A stretch of DNA of 64,000 nucleotides. Origin: an uncultured Candidatus Saccharibacteria bacterium (GTDB lineage: Bacteria; Patescibacteriota; Dojkabacteria; SC72). The notes under the pieces are model-generated. The model made no database searches. It worked only from the letters and a program-made list of their open reading frames with translations, and had not been told where the DNA came from. How positions within the stretch are numbered: position 1 is the stretch's first letter; every line of letters starts with the position of its first letter. A program made the position numbers and the translations under genes. This document shows, one piece after another, positions 23,274 to 35,623 of this stretch. The DNA lies in NCBI GenBank assembly GCA_964621195.1, contig CAZULJ010000002.1, positions 19,665 to 83,664 of the forward strand. Reading direction: 5' to 3'.

Positions 23274-23570
23274 GCGTAAGTATCATATACGATCGCGCTA
23301 ATTAATAATTAGTGAGGAAAGTCCGGACTCCATGTTGTCTCACATAAGAGATGGGTGCCAACGAAAGTTGGGAGGGAGTGATCTTTCGGAGAAAAGGGCA
23401 GCAGAGAGATATACCGCCTAAGTTTCTTAGGTAAGGGTGAAATGGTGGTGTAAGAGACCACCGGGTATTACAGTAATGTAATATCGCGTGGTAACCCCCC
23501 CTGGAGCAAGGCTTAGCCGCATAGATAGATGATCGTTTAATACAGAATCCGGCTTACTTGATACTTACGC
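23274..23570 (+). ncRNA. rnpB: RNase P RNA (bacterial type A, compact)
   Basis: P1 helix GCGTAAGTATCA (23274-23285) pairs with TGATACTTACGC (23559-23570). Universal motifs GGAAAGTCCGGACTC, AGGGTGAAATGGTGGTGTAAGAGACCACC and ACAGAATCCGGCTTA are present. TATAAT at 23263-23268 sits just upstream. Confidence 0.85.
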
Positions 23571-23595
23571 ATTAAAATACAGGACACTAGAAAAC

Positions 23596-30000: not shown

Positions 30001-30121
30001 ATCAGATCATTTTGGCAATACGTCAAAATATGGCCCACTAGTATCTGTAACCCCTAAGGCAAGTGCTACAGTTCTTGAAACGGTACTTAATTCAATTTCA
30101 AAAATATTCAGGATATTCTAA
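27035..30121 (+). CDS. giant secreted/surface protein with fibronectin-type-III-like repeats and duplicated SGY(A/V)WSQD(L/I)GWI(K/E)F motifs
   Basis: Signal peptide/TM MKNTALVRKTIWLFIALIVSLFSWVSLGRVFA. Two copies of GYAWSQDLGWIKF / GYVWSQDIGWIEF. Multiple ~100-aa W/Y-containing beta-sandwich-like modules (..TIYWTTNRESDTKVMYG.. and ..VTFEVYGATKASVLYGKN.. are typical FN3/purple-acid-phosphatase-N-like). Confidence 0.6.
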   Translation: MKNTALVRKTIWLFIALIVSLFSWVSLGRVFAANPTPVLGSAVVLNTGNYIFFTSEIYGANVVISEPDAGNSNIRTISGYAWSQDLGWIKFSQGETPGVFVDYTTGNVSGSAYVINTGNILDFSNYGSNTVVDTTTGIFSGYVWSQDIGWIEFGNNVYVADTLPPTNVNTVAGYTSDSKAKSITSSEVLVYNHTLPYFEWETPIDPSTQSHGYQSSGISGYYVYWGPSSTAIPSSSGVFQEENYIAPSVSENQTYYLRIQSVDNHGNIYTNEDQDYTFFVYKADLLNPTNVKYITTPSGTFSNIEEMFFSWPSAANVISSDENGILGWQYSLNGIDNWKGTLTSERFDFEYIPFEDTTYIHYLTNEKDSANVIIGNNIIYFRSIDNAGNFSDYVTGGISYGGMAPQFPTESVVSVSPETNTSNEFSITWPNATAQEGRTILRYYYMINTTPPSTYETLSSNSSLYIPVEGTSVSTRMLRGSIKGVNTVYVVAVDNQYGYSQSNAITGTYTLNSTLPDPILNLSLADTSIKSVQLWRASLNWEEPAYKGDGDLTYTIQRSTDGTTWATVGTTKGLSYTDTLPESRRYYYQVGVSDSTDESTNNPTMSSVINSMIQGRYTEPAEIVSNVVLKNISTRHATIYWTTNRESDTKVMYGTSSGMYFKEEAYMSEQTKNHEIKLNNLEPDTTYYLIAKWTDEDGNTGSTQEISFRTDPMPKVFSSKVERVGLDYAMVTFEVYGATKASVLYGKNLSYTDLKEVNTSVTRSKYSVIIDGLQDGTIYNYKIRLTDIEGYIYDSIENHSFTTPPKPNVSNVRIQELREVTSPTVLFSWESNAKINSIIRYRENTEGSGEMDKIDMEYLAGLHEMEISGLKSETQYLAYVEGLDEYGNKAISEPIYFTTQTDTRPPKIFNIKVEEDLMSRTVQNDRTRSAQLILTWETDEPSTGRVEYGEGSTGIYSSSSKIDQDLRTKHLVILSGLTPSKVYSLQIESSDHFGNTSKYGPLVSVTPKASATVLETVLNSISKIFRIF

Positions 30122-32265
30122 TGAAAAATAGTGAATTAATAGTTATTAAAAATATTAATAAGAGTTTTCCTGTTGGTGATAGGATAAATACAGTATTAAA
30201 AGATATATCTTTTAATATTAACAAAGGAGAGTTAATTACAATATTCGGCCCTTCTGGATGTGGTAAGTCCACACTACTACATATAATAATGGGTATTGAA
30301 AGGCCAGAATCTGGTTGTATAAAAATCTTCGGTATTGACTTATGGAAGATGAATGCAGATGACAGATCTGATATGAGGAAAAGAAACATAGGTGTTGTAT
30401 ACCAACAACAGAATTGGATTAAATCTCTTAGTATAATAGAGAATCTGGCCTTAACCTCCCAGTTACTTGGTTTCAATAAAAAGGACTCTATAAAAAAAGC
30501 AGAAGAAAGTATCTTATTAGTAGGTCTTAATGGATATCGAGATAAATATCCCTCCGAGCTATCTTCCGGTGAACAACAAAAAGCAGGTCTTGCAAGGGCT
30601 ATTATATCTAATCCGCAGGTTATAATAGCCGATGAACCTACGGGAAATCTAGATACAAAGAGTGGATATGATGTTTTAAATATACTGCAAAAGCTTGTGA
30701 GCCAAGGTAAGACAGTTGTTTTGGTTACGCACAATCCAGAATATCTTGAACATTCTGATAGGGTTGTGATTATGAAAGATGGGAATATATTAGATATTGT
30801 AACTAAAACAGGAAACACAAGAGATATTGTTGAAAGAAAACTCTTAGAAGATACGCCAAAACATACTAATGGCAATGATAGTCCTAATATTAAAATAGTT
30901 GAAGAAAATGACTATCCTGAGAGAAGTATCTTTACAAGATTTCAGCAAAATATCTCACTAATAATAAAATTCTTCATAGAATCTACCATTGTATTTATAA
31001 ACATCCTATTACTAAAATTTAATAAAGGAGAGATCCTAGATAGGTATGTAGGTAGTAAAAACAAAAAATTCTCAAAAGAAATAGGAAGCATCTATCTAAC
31101 GGAACTCTCTCTCAAGAATCTCTTCTATAAAAAATTCAGAACAATAATTACAATACTAGGAGTAGGTTTAGGGACTGGATTTGTATTACTTTTGCTTTCA
31201 CTTGGGTATGGCTTGGAAAAGGTAATTCTTGATGAAATAACAGAAGTAAAGGATCTTAAACAATTAGAAGTATTTCCAAAAGTAGGAAGTCTACTAACCC
31301 TTGATCAAGAACTCATAGAGAAAATTAAAAATGTTCCAGGAGTAGAGAAAGTATATAAAGTTAAGAGTATACCTGGCAGAATAAACTATGAAGGCTCAAG
31401 TACTGATGTTGTTTTGTATGGTATTGAAAGTGGCTATTTAGAGGATAGCTCAACAAAAAAAATAGAAGGAGAATATATTATTAAAACTTCCGATAATATG
31501 GATATAATGCTTAATAATGAATACCTGAATGTTCTTGGTCTTAAAAAAGATGAAATTGTTGGTAAGAAAATTGAGCTAGAAGTTGTAAAAACTATACCCT
31601 CAGATGAAACAAAGCAAGAGCCCCTCTCTTTAAAGATTGTAGGAATAGTAGAAGATGATTCCCCCCCAGTGGCATATATGAAAATAGAAGAAGTTATAAA
31701 ATACTCTACACAGGATTACTCACAAGCAACAGTAATTATTAAGGATGATTCTGTAATAGATAATGTCAGAAGGCAAATAGAATCCCTTGGCCTAGAATCC
31801 TTCTCTATCATGGATACAATAACCCAAGTAGAAACACTATTTACATATGTAAGGTATGGATTACTTCTCTTTGGAATAATAGCATTTAGTGTTGCATTTT
31901 TAGGAATGGTAAACACTTTAGTAGTATCACTCCTAGAAAGAACTAGGGAAGTAGGCCTTATGAAAATAGTGGGTATGAAGAAAGATGAGATAATGACAAT
32001 CTTCATTACCGAATCTATGTTCATTGGCTTCCTTGGAGGATTAATAGGTATTGCAGCTGGTTATGTAGGAGGTCTTTTCGTCTCTCTACTTGTATATATA
32101 CTATCGATATCTCGAGGAGTTGATTTTGTTAATATTTCATACATACCTTGCTCTGTTGTTATTCTTGTTGTCGTATGTACTACACTTCTTGGATTCTTTA
32201 CGGGGTTGTATCCTGCTAAAAGAGCAGTAAAGATACCTCCTCTTAATGCTATGAGGTACGAATAA
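30121..32265 (+). CDS. fused ABC transporter ATP-binding protein / FtsX-like permease (MacB/LolCDE-like)
   Basis: Walker A GPSGCGKST, signature LSSGEQQK, Walker B VIIADEPTGNLD; C-terminal 4-TM FtsX-like permease with a large extracytoplasmic loop; start overlaps the upstream stop (TAATG). Confidence 0.8.
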   Translation: MKNSELIVIKNINKSFPVGDRINTVLKDISFNINKGELITIFGPSGCGKSTLLHIIMGIERPESGCIKIFGIDLWKMNADDRSDMRKRNIGVVYQQQNWIKSLSIIENLALTSQLLGFNKKDSIKKAEESILLVGLNGYRDKYPSELSSGEQQKAGLARAIISNPQVIIADEPTGNLDTKSGYDVLNILQKLVSQGKTVVLVTHNPEYLEHSDRVVIMKDGNILDIVTKTGNTRDIVERKLLEDTPKHTNGNDSPNIKIVEENDYPERSIFTRFQQNISLIIKFFIESTIVFINILLLKFNKGEILDRYVGSKNKKFSKEIGSIYLTELSLKNLFYKKFRTIITILGVGLGTGFVLLLLSLGYGLEKVILDEITEVKDLKQLEVFPKVGSLLTLDQELIEKIKNVPGVEKVYKVKSIPGRINYEGSSTDVVLYGIESGYLEDSSTKKIEGEYIIKTSDNMDIMLNNEYLNVLGLKKDEIVGKKIELEVVKTIPSDETKQEPLSLKIVGIVEDDSPPVAYMKIEEVIKYSTQDYSQATVIIKDDSVIDNVRRQIESLGLESFSIMDTITQVETLFTYVRYGLLLFGIIAFSVAFLGMVNTLVVSLLERTREVGLMKIVGMKKDEIMTIFITESMFIGFLGGLIGIAAGYVGGLFVSLLVYILSISRGVDFVNISYIPCSVVILVVVCTTLLGFFTGLYPAKRAVKIPPLNAMRYE

Positions 32266-32282: not shown

Positions 32283-33137
32283 ATGAAATTAACAAGATTA
32301 GAAAAAATTTTAATAGTTTTAATAGTTGGTATATTAGCTAGTACCTTTGTAATAACTAAGGTTCTTGCAGAACAAAGTACTGGTACTCCAAACTCTGAAG
32401 TCAATTCTGTGATCAAGGATGTATACGAGAATCTAGTTAATTTAGAGTATGGATCCGAGACAGGATCTAATGGCCCTATGTGGAACAGAATAATATCTTC
32501 TAGCTTATGGGTACCAGAGGGTACTATTACAGAGGCAGATGTAGTAAATGGTAAAACATTTTTTAATAGTAGTAGAGTAGAAAAAACCGGTACTTTAGAT
32601 TTTCCAAAATACGAAGATATGTCTTTACAAGCAAAAGACTATAGAGATTCAAGTGCCTCTACTACTTGGAGCTCTTGGACCTTGACAAGTGGTGCTGCTA
32701 CAACAGGTGTATACAAAGATAATAGGACGGGGTTATATTGGAGTGCAATGCTGGGTTCTGCAAATTCATTTACAAACGAATTTACAATAGCATCGTGCCC
32801 CTTTTTTACAACGGTACCTAGGGGTGATTATAACGGTGGTAATGTAAATTGTGGTAATGCTATAAATACCTGTGCAACTCTATCCCTTGATTTAAATGGT
32901 GACTCAACTCCAGAAACTAAATGGTACTTACCAACACAAGCAGAACTTATGCAGGCATATTTAAATGGTATAAACTTATCTACCAATACTACATGGGTAA
33001 CAGGGAATAATTTTTGGTCCAGTACCGAGAATCAGTCTACTAATACGTACGCATGGAACGCCTACCTTAACGGTGGCTATACCGCTATCAATAATAAGAT
33101 TACAAGTTATTCAGTTCGTTGTGTCCACAGGGATTGA
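32283..33137 (+). CDS. DGR target (variable) protein: pilin-like N-terminal hydrophobic segment plus C-terminal DUF1566 (Lcl-C / C-type-lectin-fold) domain carrying the VR
   Basis: N-terminus MKLTRLEKILIVLIVGILAS. C-terminus WYLPTQAELMQAYLNG....FWSST..........AWNAYLNGGY.....K.....VRCVHRD matches the DUF1566 pattern (W.LPT..EL..L...YWSS........aw.v.f..G........VRCVR). The last 41 codons are duplicated downstream as the TR. Confidence 0.8.
   Translation: MKLTRLEKILIVLIVGILASTFVITKVLAEQSTGTPNSEVNSVIKDVYENLVNLEYGSETGSNGPMWNRIISSSLWVPEGTITEADVVNGKTFFNSSRVEKTGTLDFPKYEDMSLQAKDYRDSSASTTWSSWTLTSGAATTGVYKDNRTGLYWSAMLGSANSFTNEFTIASCPFFTTVPRGDYNGGNVNCGNAINTCATLSLDLNGDSTPETKWYLPTQAELMQAYLNGINLSTNTTWVTGNNFWSSTENQSTNTYAWNAYLNGGYTAINNKITSYSVRCVHRD
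33012..33133 (+). repeat. DGR variable repeat (VR), 122 bp, at the 3' end of the target CDS
   Basis: 108/122 identity to 33511..33632 with no indels; all 14 mismatches occur at TR adenines. Confidence 0.85.
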
Positions 33138-33510
33138 TAGGAGGGTTCTAGTATAAGTATATAGGGTTGTCCGCCCTGTCTGTAATTGATATCCCATTAA
33201 ACTTGTTTTGCTGAACCCGATTAGCCTAGCAGTGAAAATGTAGAACACAGTCTTAAATCTATAGGTCTCTAGGTCGCTGAACTCTTGGAGAGTATAATAT
33301 CTGCTAGGCAATTTAAATATTGAAATGTCTATTTTGATATGTGATTATGACTTATGCAGGATCTTACATTCTCAACCTTGTTTTAGGCTCTGGTTTGTAA
33401 GGGGGGCGTAATATATAATCCTACTTGCTATACCCATTGGGTACTAAGATTCAAAAAGTCTTTTTATAAAATCAGACTTTTGGTGAGTAATATAAATTAG
33501 CAAGTTTCCG

Positions 33511-33632
33511 TTTTGGTCCAGTACCGAGAATCAGAATAATAATACGAACGCATGGAACACAAACCTTAACAATGGAAATACCAATAACAATAATAAGATT
33601 ACAAGTTATTCAGTTCGTTGTGTCCACAGGGA
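33511..33632 (+). repeat. DGR template repeat (TR), 122 bp, Asn-codon (AAY)-rich
   Basis: Non-coding copy of the VR. In target frame it reads FWSSTENQNNNTNAWNTNLNNGNTNNNNKITSYSVRCVHR; VR differs only where the TR has A. Confidence 0.85.
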
Positions 33633-33641
33633 GAATATATT

Positions 33642-33992
33642 ATGCCTCATGCAAGTAATACTTTATATTTAACACTATATAAATTTATACAGTATTTGTA
33701 TTGTGTTGTTCGCAATTTCCCCAAAGAGTACAAATATACACTTGGTGCAGATATTTTAAATCTCTCTTGGAAATCTCTTGATTATATTATTGTCGCTAAT
33801 TCGGTTAGTAACAAGGAGAAGAAAAAATATCTTGAAAAGGCAGTAGCTGTGTTTCTTAGTCTTAAATATAGATTAAGGCTCTCTAGTGATTTAAAACTGT
33901 TTAACAATAAGAGGTATGCGTATGTTCTAGAAAACTATCTTGAAATAGAAAAAATATTAAACGGTTGGCTTGCTTGGTCTAAAAGACAGTAG
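33642..33992 (+). CDS. avd: DGR accessory variability determinant (Avd; four-helix-bundle / 23S-rRNA-IVS protein family)
   Basis: ~116 aa; FPKEYKYTLGADILNLSWKSL..I..ANS......K.YLEKA......L.Y.LRLS.DLK resembles Avd / S23 ribosomal-IVS proteins (FPKeEkygLtsQi.Raa.Si.sNIaEG); start taken at the MPHASN ATG just after the TR. Confidence 0.7.
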   Translation: MPHASNTLYLTLYKFIQYLYCVVRNFPKEYKYTLGADILNLSWKSLDYIIVANSVSNKEKKKYLEKAVAVFLSLKYRLRLSSDLKLFNNKRYAYVLENYLEIEKILNGWLAWSKRQ

Positions 33993-35162: not shown

Positions 35163-35623
35163 ATCGCGATATATTATATAAATGGTATAGAGTAAGTATC
35201 TTGGGCCTAATAATACTTGGGAACCTATGCAAAATTATAGTGAATCTGCAATTCTTAACTATGAAGATCTTAACAGTTCAAGATTGTTACATCTGATATG
35301 AAGAGTTTTTAAAAGACATACAGATATATTACAGGAAAAAGTTGAAATAAACTCTTCCCGATTGTTGTTAACTATGTTGATTTGTATATTAGGGGCAATA
35401 GCTAGAAAGTAAGCTCTAAAAATGATATCATTACAAAGTCCTTGATAACCATGTTTTGTGGTTGGTAAAGAAATATTAAAGAATAATTGATTAATGAACA
35501 TTTTGAAAAATATATATACTAAAAAATATATACTACAAGAACTCTTTGATGTAGGAGATCGTAATTAGATCTTCCTATTTTTCTTCACCAAAAAAGGATG
35601 AATAAATTTTTAACAATACTCTT

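Follow-up and report, generated by a model that had tools for sequence, protein, structure and literature searches.

Locus and genes

The stretch of DNA analysed here, 64,000 nucleotides of contig CAZULJ010000002.1 and called the window throughout, carries a diversity-generating retroelement (DGR). The element consists of a target gene that ends in a variable repeat (VR), a template repeat (TR), the accessory gene avd and a gene for a reverse transcriptase (RT) on the opposite strand (Table 1). That this is a complete DGR is practically certain, and the DGR identification together with its general mechanism was given an overall probability of about 0.9. The TR is preceded by a conserved folded leader, one strand of which pairs with the TR 3′ end across the whole repeat. 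Leader and long-range duplex are regarded with high confidence as a real RNA structure. Loci of relatives are denoted by L numbers.

Residues 143-281 of the target matched Pfam PF07603 Lcl_C (6e-13). Sequence searches of the PDB with the target and with Avd gave no matches, and for the target a fold search was therefore needed. The AlphaFold (AF2) model, made with 40 homologues, had a mean predicted local distance difference test score (pLDDT) of 88.4 and an N-terminal helix at residues 5-31. Its best Foldseek match was the C-terminal domain of Legionella Lcl (8q4e; 6e-4, 20% sequence identity), followed by many C-type lectins with weak E-values. Avd scored 65 bits against its Pfam family (cut-off 40), and its start codon (ATG 33642) lies ten bases past the TR.

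The best PDB relative of the RT was the Bordetella phage enzyme bRT (8ub7, 6.2e-32), with the next RT at 7e-9. The alignment to 8ub7 spans IGNLTSQFFANLY and RYADD. The motifs IGNLTSQFFAN (residues 212-222) and RYADD (243-247) fit the [I/V/L]GxxxSQ and YxDD signature of the DGR clade, and the motif residues were invariant among 23 relatives. The overlap between the 3′ ends of avd and the RT gene (window 33957-33992) was exactly 36 nt in eight loci, namely the window, L001, L002, L163, L165, L167, L169 and L172 (RT identity 60-100%). The two mRNAs would be complementary at their ends over this overlap.

Table 1. Features of the element and of the two genes 5′ of it, in window coordinates.
Feature	Position	Strand	Remarks
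Target gene, 284 aa	32283..33137	+	N-terminal hydrophobic anchor or signal at about residues 5-31; C-terminal DUF1566/Lcl_C C-type-lectin-like domain ending in the VR
Variable repeat (VR)	33012..33133	+	Final 41 codons of the target; 108/122 identity to the TR; hypervariable in 8 alleles and 4 strains
IMH-like VR 3′ end (IMH, initiation of mutagenic homing)	33110..33133	+	Same sequence as the TR 3′ end; adenines unsubstituted in 4/4 strains
Promoter-like site	33320..33348	+	TTGAAA, 17-nt spacer, GATTAT, upstream TG; ends about 6 nt before the leader; consensus scan
Conserved structured 5′ leader of the TR RNA, 154 nt	33354..33507	+	P2/P3 domain, linker, P4 enclosing hairpins P5 and P6; covariation
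Duplex, leader strand	33403..33422	+	Contiguous with P2 (5′) and P4 (3′); RNAduplex and minimum free energy (MFE) fold
Helix P4	33423-33430 with 33498-33505	+	Encloses P5 (33431-33443) and P6 (33449-33488)
Template repeat (TR)	33511..33632	+	Non-coding, inside the avd 5′ untranslated region; 49 A/122 nt
Duplex, 3′ strand	33629..33648	+	Final 4 TR nt (GGGA), avd Shine-Dalgarno spacer and start codon (AUAUAUUAUGCCUC)
avd, accessory variability determinant, 116 aa	33642..33992	+	Four-helix-bundle family; Pfam PF22296 bAvd 1e-17
DGR reverse transcriptase, 401 aa	33957..35162	-	Pfam RVT_1 1.1e-19; convergent with avd, 36-nt 3′ overlap
Protein with FN3 and purple-acid-phosphatase-N-like domains, 1028 aa	27035-30121		Directly 5′ of the transporter gene
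Fused MacB-type ABC transporter	30121-32265		ATPase, periplasmic core and FtsX domains; directly 5′ of the DGR target

Repeat pair and adenine footprint

A preliminary description of the window had reported a 122-bp VR/TR pair without indels, in which all mismatches fall on template adenines. Pairwise alignment and tabulation by TR base gave the same result. The alignment of VR and TR is ungapped, with 108 identities and 14 mismatches in 122 columns. The TR has A at all 14, and the VR bases there are T,C,C,T,G,C,T,G,G,C,T,G,C,T. Under a hypergeometric model (49 A in 122 nt), 14 mismatches that are all on A have a probability of 7.9e-7, and the same A-only pattern within the 53-nt variable core (28 A) has one of 1.7e-5. 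The homology between TR and VR stops abruptly at both ends.

The VR is in frame 0 of the target reading frame. First, second and third codon positions take seven, five and two of the substitutions, respectively, which together cause nine amino-acid changes and one silent change. Read in the target frame, 12/40 codons of the TR are AAY (Y, C or T), and the substituted codons derive from AAY, ACA and GGA. The VR base list, the TR translation, its richness in AAY and the affected codons were all as first described. The TR had also been called non-coding, which stands; it is not intergenic ‘junk’, as its last bases, AGGGAG, are the Shine-Dalgarno sequence of avd (ATG 33642).

No further VR-like copies were found on either strand of the 64-kb window with TR adenines as wildcards. 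A scan of the genome contig collection with the TR pattern (N at adenines) gave 0 matches to sister TRs or VRs. The footprint had been put down to adenine-specific mutagenic retrohoming. This attribution is supported by the genes, as a DGR-type RT, an Avd and a target of C-type-lectin type all lie beside the repeats.

The VR-TR spacer 5′ of the promoter-like site (33138-33320) was conserved in the window, L001 and L002 only. At about 33221-33243 it contains the invariant sequence CTGAACCCGATT(A/G)GCCTAGCAGT, which is not in relatives with shorter spacers.

Diversification among related strains

Orthologous loci were retrieved via the RT and the target, and all comparisons are from one assembly to another and not inside a single sample. 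Eight distinct 284-aa alleles of the target made up its 90%-identity cluster. Their first 243 residues were nearly invariant, with 26 variable columns that had two residues each in all but one, and the VR was different in each allele. Where the TR has adenine in one of the first two codon positions, 21 of 28 VR codons varied, compared with 0/12 of the other codons (Fisher 9e-6, 8 alleles).

At the DNA level, four strains were compared (the window, L001, L171 and L172), whose loci are about 89% identical overall. The TRs of L001, L171 and L172 are identical and the window TR differs from them at 3 sites; the four VRs have 17-22 pairwise differences. Mismatches between TR and VR were at TR adenines in 72/73 cases over the four strains (14/14, 16/16, 20/21 and 22/22). 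Window-specific TR changes at bases other than adenine, for example the T at repeat position 90, are also present in the window VR, which indicates that the VR is periodically overwritten from its cognate TR. The last substituted adenine in any of the four strains is at repeat position 98 (33109), and A102, A116, A118 and A122 are unchanged in all of them. This leaves a mutation-free 3′ segment of at least 24 nt (33110-33133 and 33609-33632) with the same sequence in VR and TR.

These sequence comparisons suggest that the VR has very likely been diversified since the divergence of the sampled strains. The earlier view of an active or recently active system is borne out by the codon counts in the eight alleles and the adenine counts in the four strains. 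It had also been proposed that polymorphism be sought at TR-adenine positions in reads; the check was run on public assemblies instead and the variation was found at TR-adenine codons. Exact-sequence contig look-ups with the window RT and Avd gave no matches, and no other assembly with the window RT was returned.

Two VRs showed peculiarities. The VR of L171 differs from its own TR at 20 adenine sites and by one adjacent T>A change. In L002 (L002:2517-2640, JGI 3300010223) the VR is 18 nt (6 codons, in frame) shorter than the TR and, in a 3′ part that is otherwise unchanged, has a single mismatch that is not at an adenine (C>G).

Structured leader RNA 5′ of the TR

Between the window and L002, the flanking genes are about 65% identical and the segment from the target end through avd 85-97%. 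The non-coding interval 33370-33510 is 95-98% identical, so that the leader is conserved above the flanking coding DNA. The leader (33354-33507) and its counterparts were aligned for 11 sequences (alignment A5, RT identity 60-100%). Six helices were found in A5, with 98.8% of cells paired. Compensatory changes were present at 11 pairs, a count that was matched by 0/500 shuffles and compares with 0-2 in slid controls.

A covariance model (R1) was built from A5 and matched one copy in the window and 24 further loci, 25 in total. Among the non-training matches with a called TR, 14/15 lay -3 to +16 nt 5′ of the TR on the same strand. The adjacency of leader and TR is independent of what follows the TR, be it avd, the RT gene or an Avd-like open reading frame (ORF) on the opposite strand. 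In the alignment of all 25 sequences (A7), which was fitted to the model and whose pair counts are thus biased towards the structure, 93.8% of cells were paired (70% in shuffles) and 38/40 pairs were compensatory. Compensatory cells in A7 numbered 223, compared with 59 in shuffles and 25-47 in slid controls. All 8 pairs of P4 were compensatory in A7, and the 3′ strand of P4 stops 5 nt short of the TR. Searches of Rfam with the leader and with the VR-TR spacer found no family at gathering or permissive thresholds.

The promoter-like site ahead of the leader has counterparts (TTGnnA-17-nAnTAT) at the same position in L003, L083, L084, L163 and L166, as read by eye from the sequences. On the other side of the TR, no conserved RNA or stem-loop resembling the Sp element of Bordetella was found in the first 250 nt; only the Shine-Dalgarno sequence and start codon are conserved there, and elsewhere the variation is of the coding type. 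As judged by eye, the window and L001 share a hairpin at about 33688-33710 that is not kept in other loci. An alternative partner for the P4 5′ strand, GCAAGUA downstream of the TR, was rejected because L003, L084 and L165 do not keep the pairing, again as judged by eye.

Long-range duplex at the TR 3′ end

In the window, leader positions 33403-33416 pair with 33635-33648 and 33419-33422 with 33629-33632. The duplex thus has 18 bp around a 2x2 internal loop (-24.6 kcal/mol). The MFE and centroid folds of 33354-33670 contain it together with P2-P6 (z = -2.3).

Within the 330 nt searched downstream, the leader segment had its best partner at the TR 3′ end in each of the 25 loci, despite wide sequence divergence. 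The TR call was usable in 16 loci, and in all of these the duplex began 2-17 nt ahead of the point where TR/VR homology ends. Cognate duplexes had a mean energy of -21.4 kcal/mol, which was reached by 0/20000 permutations, against -11.5 kcal/mol for non-cognate ones.

On the leader strand there is no unpaired base between the duplex and either P2 or P4. As the duplex is contiguous with P4, and P4 ends 5 nt before the TR, the TR would form a loop of about 120 nt extruded between two helices.

Other pairings of the leader 5′ end were also seen. AUGCA (33355-33358) pairs with GCGU (33407-33410) of the leader in helix P1, which showed covariation in A7. In the MFE fold it pairs alternatively with UGCA (33650-33653) just past the avd start. 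The P1 pairing excludes the long-range duplex, and the two may therefore constitute a conformational switch.

Comparison with known systems

DGRs of CPR (candidate phyla radiation) bacteria are said to have been treated by Paul and colleagues in Nat Microbiol in 2017. Those catalogued since (Wu et al., 2018, PMC5758913; Roux et al., 2021, PMC8144416) share with the window the host lineage, a chromosomal site, a single adjacent target, Avd and the core order TR-avd-RT. The window differs in that TR and avd are on one strand and the RT gene is convergent, with a fixed 36-nt overlap. Wu et al. (2018, PMC5758913) give the core order TR, avd, RT (architecture B3) for 90% of CPR DGRs, state that TR and RT may occupy different strands, and place DUF1566 targets in category ‘d’ with Legionella as exemplar. 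The window is a candidate member of B3, whose printed formula is TR-(avd)-RT: its order TR-avd-RT agrees, and so does avd opposite the RT gene. A clade of cellular DGRs restricted to Patescibacteria (clade 2) was described by Roux et al. (2021, PMC8144416). DGRs with targets like that of the window are already catalogued, and abundant, in CPR bacteria (PMC5758913, PMC8144416). At the gene level, the locus is a further member of a described class and adds one cellular DGR to it.

The Bordetella BPP-1 DGR (mtd-avd-TR-brt; Handa et al.) resembles the window in its RT family, in having Avd, in a footprint confined to adenines and in a C-type-lectin target whose VR is C-terminal. Cryo-EM of the Bordetella system indicated that RNA around the TR controls priming, processivity and termination (bioRxiv 10.1101/2023.10.23.563531). 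Its Sp RNA, 3′ of the TR, takes part in two adjacent duplexes, one with the TR 3′ end (TR:Sp, the template:primer duplex, primed from Sp A56) and the other with a segment just upstream of the TR (avd:Sp, ‘cPRT Stop’), and the TR is looped out (bioRxiv 10.1101/2023.10.23.563531). Duplexes between upstream and downstream segments were predicted in 207/278 DGRs in the same study, which covered 40 nt on the upstream side of the TR and 100 nt on the downstream side.

The window RNA resembles that of Bordetella in that one continuous strand pairs with both the TR 3′ end (33403-33422/33629-33648) and the TR 5′ flank (33423-33430/33498-33505), with the TR looped out. It differs in the position of the organiser. 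In Bordetella, Sp (140 nt) is 3′ of the TR, carries an Avd-binding stem-loop and the priming adenosine, wraps around RT-Avd and provides the cis-primer, whereas in the window the corresponding strand precedes the TR, which is followed by the avd ORF. The window duplex also reaches 14 bp into the 3′ flank. Unlike BPP-1, the window has no GC hairpin after the VR, its IMH equals IMH*, the TR counterpart, and the element is cellular, not phage-borne, with genes on two strands.

The Legionella pneumophila DGR and CLec2-DUF1566 targets are similar to the window target in that the VR lies in a DUF1566/Lcl_C domain, as indicated by the Pfam match and by 8q4e as best structural match, and in being short surface-exposed proteins. 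LdtA of Legionella is a lipoprotein of a diderm, whereas the window target carries a transmembrane or signal helix at its N-terminus, in a host that probably has just one membrane.

Neither the 154-nt leader nor its duplex with the TR 3′ flank is mentioned in the available part of Wu et al. (2018, PMC5758913) or in Roux et al. (2021, PMC8144416), and a folded leader RNA that holds the TR seems to be undescribed. The covarying leader lies about 100 nt further upstream than the span surveyed in the Bordetella study, and its strand pairs with both TR ends. This leader RNA and the permuted topology of the organiser are the part of the locus most worth attention, and the comparative RNA result may outlast the locus itself. 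If the leader strand is a functional organiser, it would represent a natural permutation experiment on the DGR ribonucleoprotein. This would help DGR detectors, and engineering with DGRec-type tools, to define minimal RNA cassettes for AT-rich hosts.

Proposed mechanism

In the mechanism proposed, a transcript with a presumed start near 33354 would carry the 154-nt folded leader, the 122-nt TR and the avd ORF. The RT, made from the opposite strand, would act with Avd to copy the TR into cDNA with misincorporation opposite template adenines. The cDNA would then take the place of the homologous VR in the 3′-terminal part of the target gene. Up to about 20 codons, mostly Asn (AAY), could be recoded in this way in the ligand-binding face of a membrane-anchored, C-type-lectin-like surface protein.

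By analogy with Sp, the leader would hold the TR 3′ end in place for reverse transcription primed in cis near 33419-33423, at the junction of duplex and P4, and P4 would terminate cDNA synthesis. The chance that the leader acts as such a functional organiser or primer was put slightly below even. A fuller model was put forward more tentatively still. In this CPR clade the DGR RNA would be circularly permuted, with an organiser 5′ of the TR that clamps the TR 3′ end and is stacked on P4. As the duplex buries the avd ribosome-binding site and start, RT-competent and Avd-translated conformers would be mutually exclusive. Burial of the start could couple Avd synthesis to RNA conformation, and the fuller model would include feedback between Avd supply and mutagenesis.

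Several observations weigh against this picture. For the RNA, no adenosine is conserved at the duplex/P4 junction across the 25 loci, and the priming role of the leader rests purely on analogy. Helix P1, part of the first model, competes with the long-range duplex, and the pair counts of A7 carry the bias given above. The promoter is a consensus match only, and such sites are not above chance in the region. For the element as a whole, Avd matched NCBIfam DivGenRetAVD at 2.6e-18 with 66.3 bits, under the equivalog cut-off of 80. IMH is identical to IMH*; with identical 3′ segments, the discrimination of donor from recipient must rely on the flanks. Identical IMH/IMH* cases were already recorded by Wu et al. 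(2018, PMC5758913). No GC-rich inverted repeat, hairpin or cruciform was found after the VR, where folding was no better than in shuffles. A GC-rich inverted repeat downstream of the VR is present in just 34% of DGRs (Wu et al., 2018, PMC5758913). The hairpin is thus not universal, and its lack does not exclude DGR membership.

Alternative explanations

The leader and duplex could serve mainly to control avd translation or RNA stability, by sequestering the Shine-Dalgarno sequence and AUG outside the RT machinery. In the window, the duplex does cover both the avd Shine-Dalgarno (GGGAG) and the AUG at 33642-33644. AUGC at the leader 5′ end is also similar to the avd start and can bind the strand that the start pairs with (P1), which would permit a switch. 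However, leader and duplex are kept in L035 and L026, where the RT gene follows the TR, in L004, L086 and L089, where the Avd-like ORF nearest the TR is on the opposite strand, and in L093, which has the order RT-leader-TR. The duplex persists in L004, L026, L035, L086 and L089 without an avd start after the TR, and its start is always within the last TR nucleotides. It is thus tied to the TR and not to avd translation, and control of avd as the main role is unlikely. Such control is compatible with a role in reverse transcription, and the two are not exclusive.

A second possibility is that the element is a relic that records past retrohoming only, the VR differences between strains being old fixed alleles spread by recombination. 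Three observations favour a relic and count against continued activity. First, L163 and L164, two assemblies with identical RT, carry the same VR. Second, the RT gene of L171 (Logan SRR26929804) is split into two called ORFs (154 and 177 aa; L171:4675-5881) and its VR has nonetheless diverged; such elements can therefore decay, and L171 is either a recently inactivated DGR or an assembly error. Third, the window and L001 are 100% identical over a tract of about 1.3 kb, which shows that alleles move by recombination. In contrast, the RT, avd, TR and leader of the window are all intact, and its cassette is 85-97% identical to L002 where the flanking genes are at about 65%. All VRs also differ among the eight alleles of one 90% cluster. 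With identical TRs and VRs that differ at 17-22 positions, L001, L171 and L172 are hard to explain without repeated retrohoming after divergence. The relic reading was therefore judged improbable, and an element diversified by retrohoming since the strains separated is preferred.

Segmental duplication or silent-cassette gene conversion without reverse transcription, as in pilin-type antigenic variation, shares with the locus solely the direct repeat 499 bp downstream of a surface-protein gene and can be dismissed, given the adenine-specific mismatches (72/73) in four independent strains, the adjacent DGR-type RT and Avd, the single donor copy, and a donor that is constant while the recipient varies.

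Architecture across relatives

The arrangement was classified in 103 RT relatives with a detectable TR/VR pair. The classical order VR-avd-TR-RT was present in 47/103 loci and the same order with an inverted RT in 15/103. The order of the window, VR-TR-avd with a convergent RT, was found in 9/103 loci, and VR-TR-avd-RT on a single strand in 6/103. The closest RT relatives (at least 45% identity) are mostly window-like, with TR and VR opposite the RT strand; in a few of them (L071, L090 and L091) the TR is on the RT strand. L166 (L166:824-3694, ENA ERZ28614712; RT identity 65%) has the order leader-TR-avd-target with a divergent RT, which indicates that leader, TR and avd move as one unit.

Host and genomic setting

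Among named relatives, those nearest to the RT and to the target come from metagenome-assembled genomes of Candidatus Dojkabacteria (WS6); they identify the host, as far as sequence affinity goes, as a tiny uncultured CPR bacterium close to that group. The G+C content is 35.5%. The DGR locus is chromosomal. Its neighbours include an RNase P RNA (23276-23572), two tRNAs, RNase Y, the MacB-type ABC transporter and the large FN3-containing protein. Synteny is kept in L001, L002, L163, L167, L169, L171 and L172, and the order MacB, target, TR, avd, convergent RT recurs in Dojkabacteria-like contigs (RT identity 60-100%).

The pair of FN3 protein and MacB-type transporter is upstream of the target in all syntenic relatives. 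This hints at a functional link of the variable lectin to an export or efflux module. A small, anchored, diversified lectin-like protein beside a MacB-type transporter fits episymbionts that vary surface-binding proteins via DGRs.

The segment 31510-32830 has about 100% identity to L001 (Logan DRR438537), compared with about 82% in both flanks. It is a recombination tract that takes in the MacB-type gene (3′ part) and the target (5′ two-thirds) and ends before the VR. On the other side of the element, L001, L171 and L172 have an intact 89-aa ORF between the RT gene and RNase Y; its copy in the window, 35214-35500 (+), is degraded and contains stops and a frameshift.

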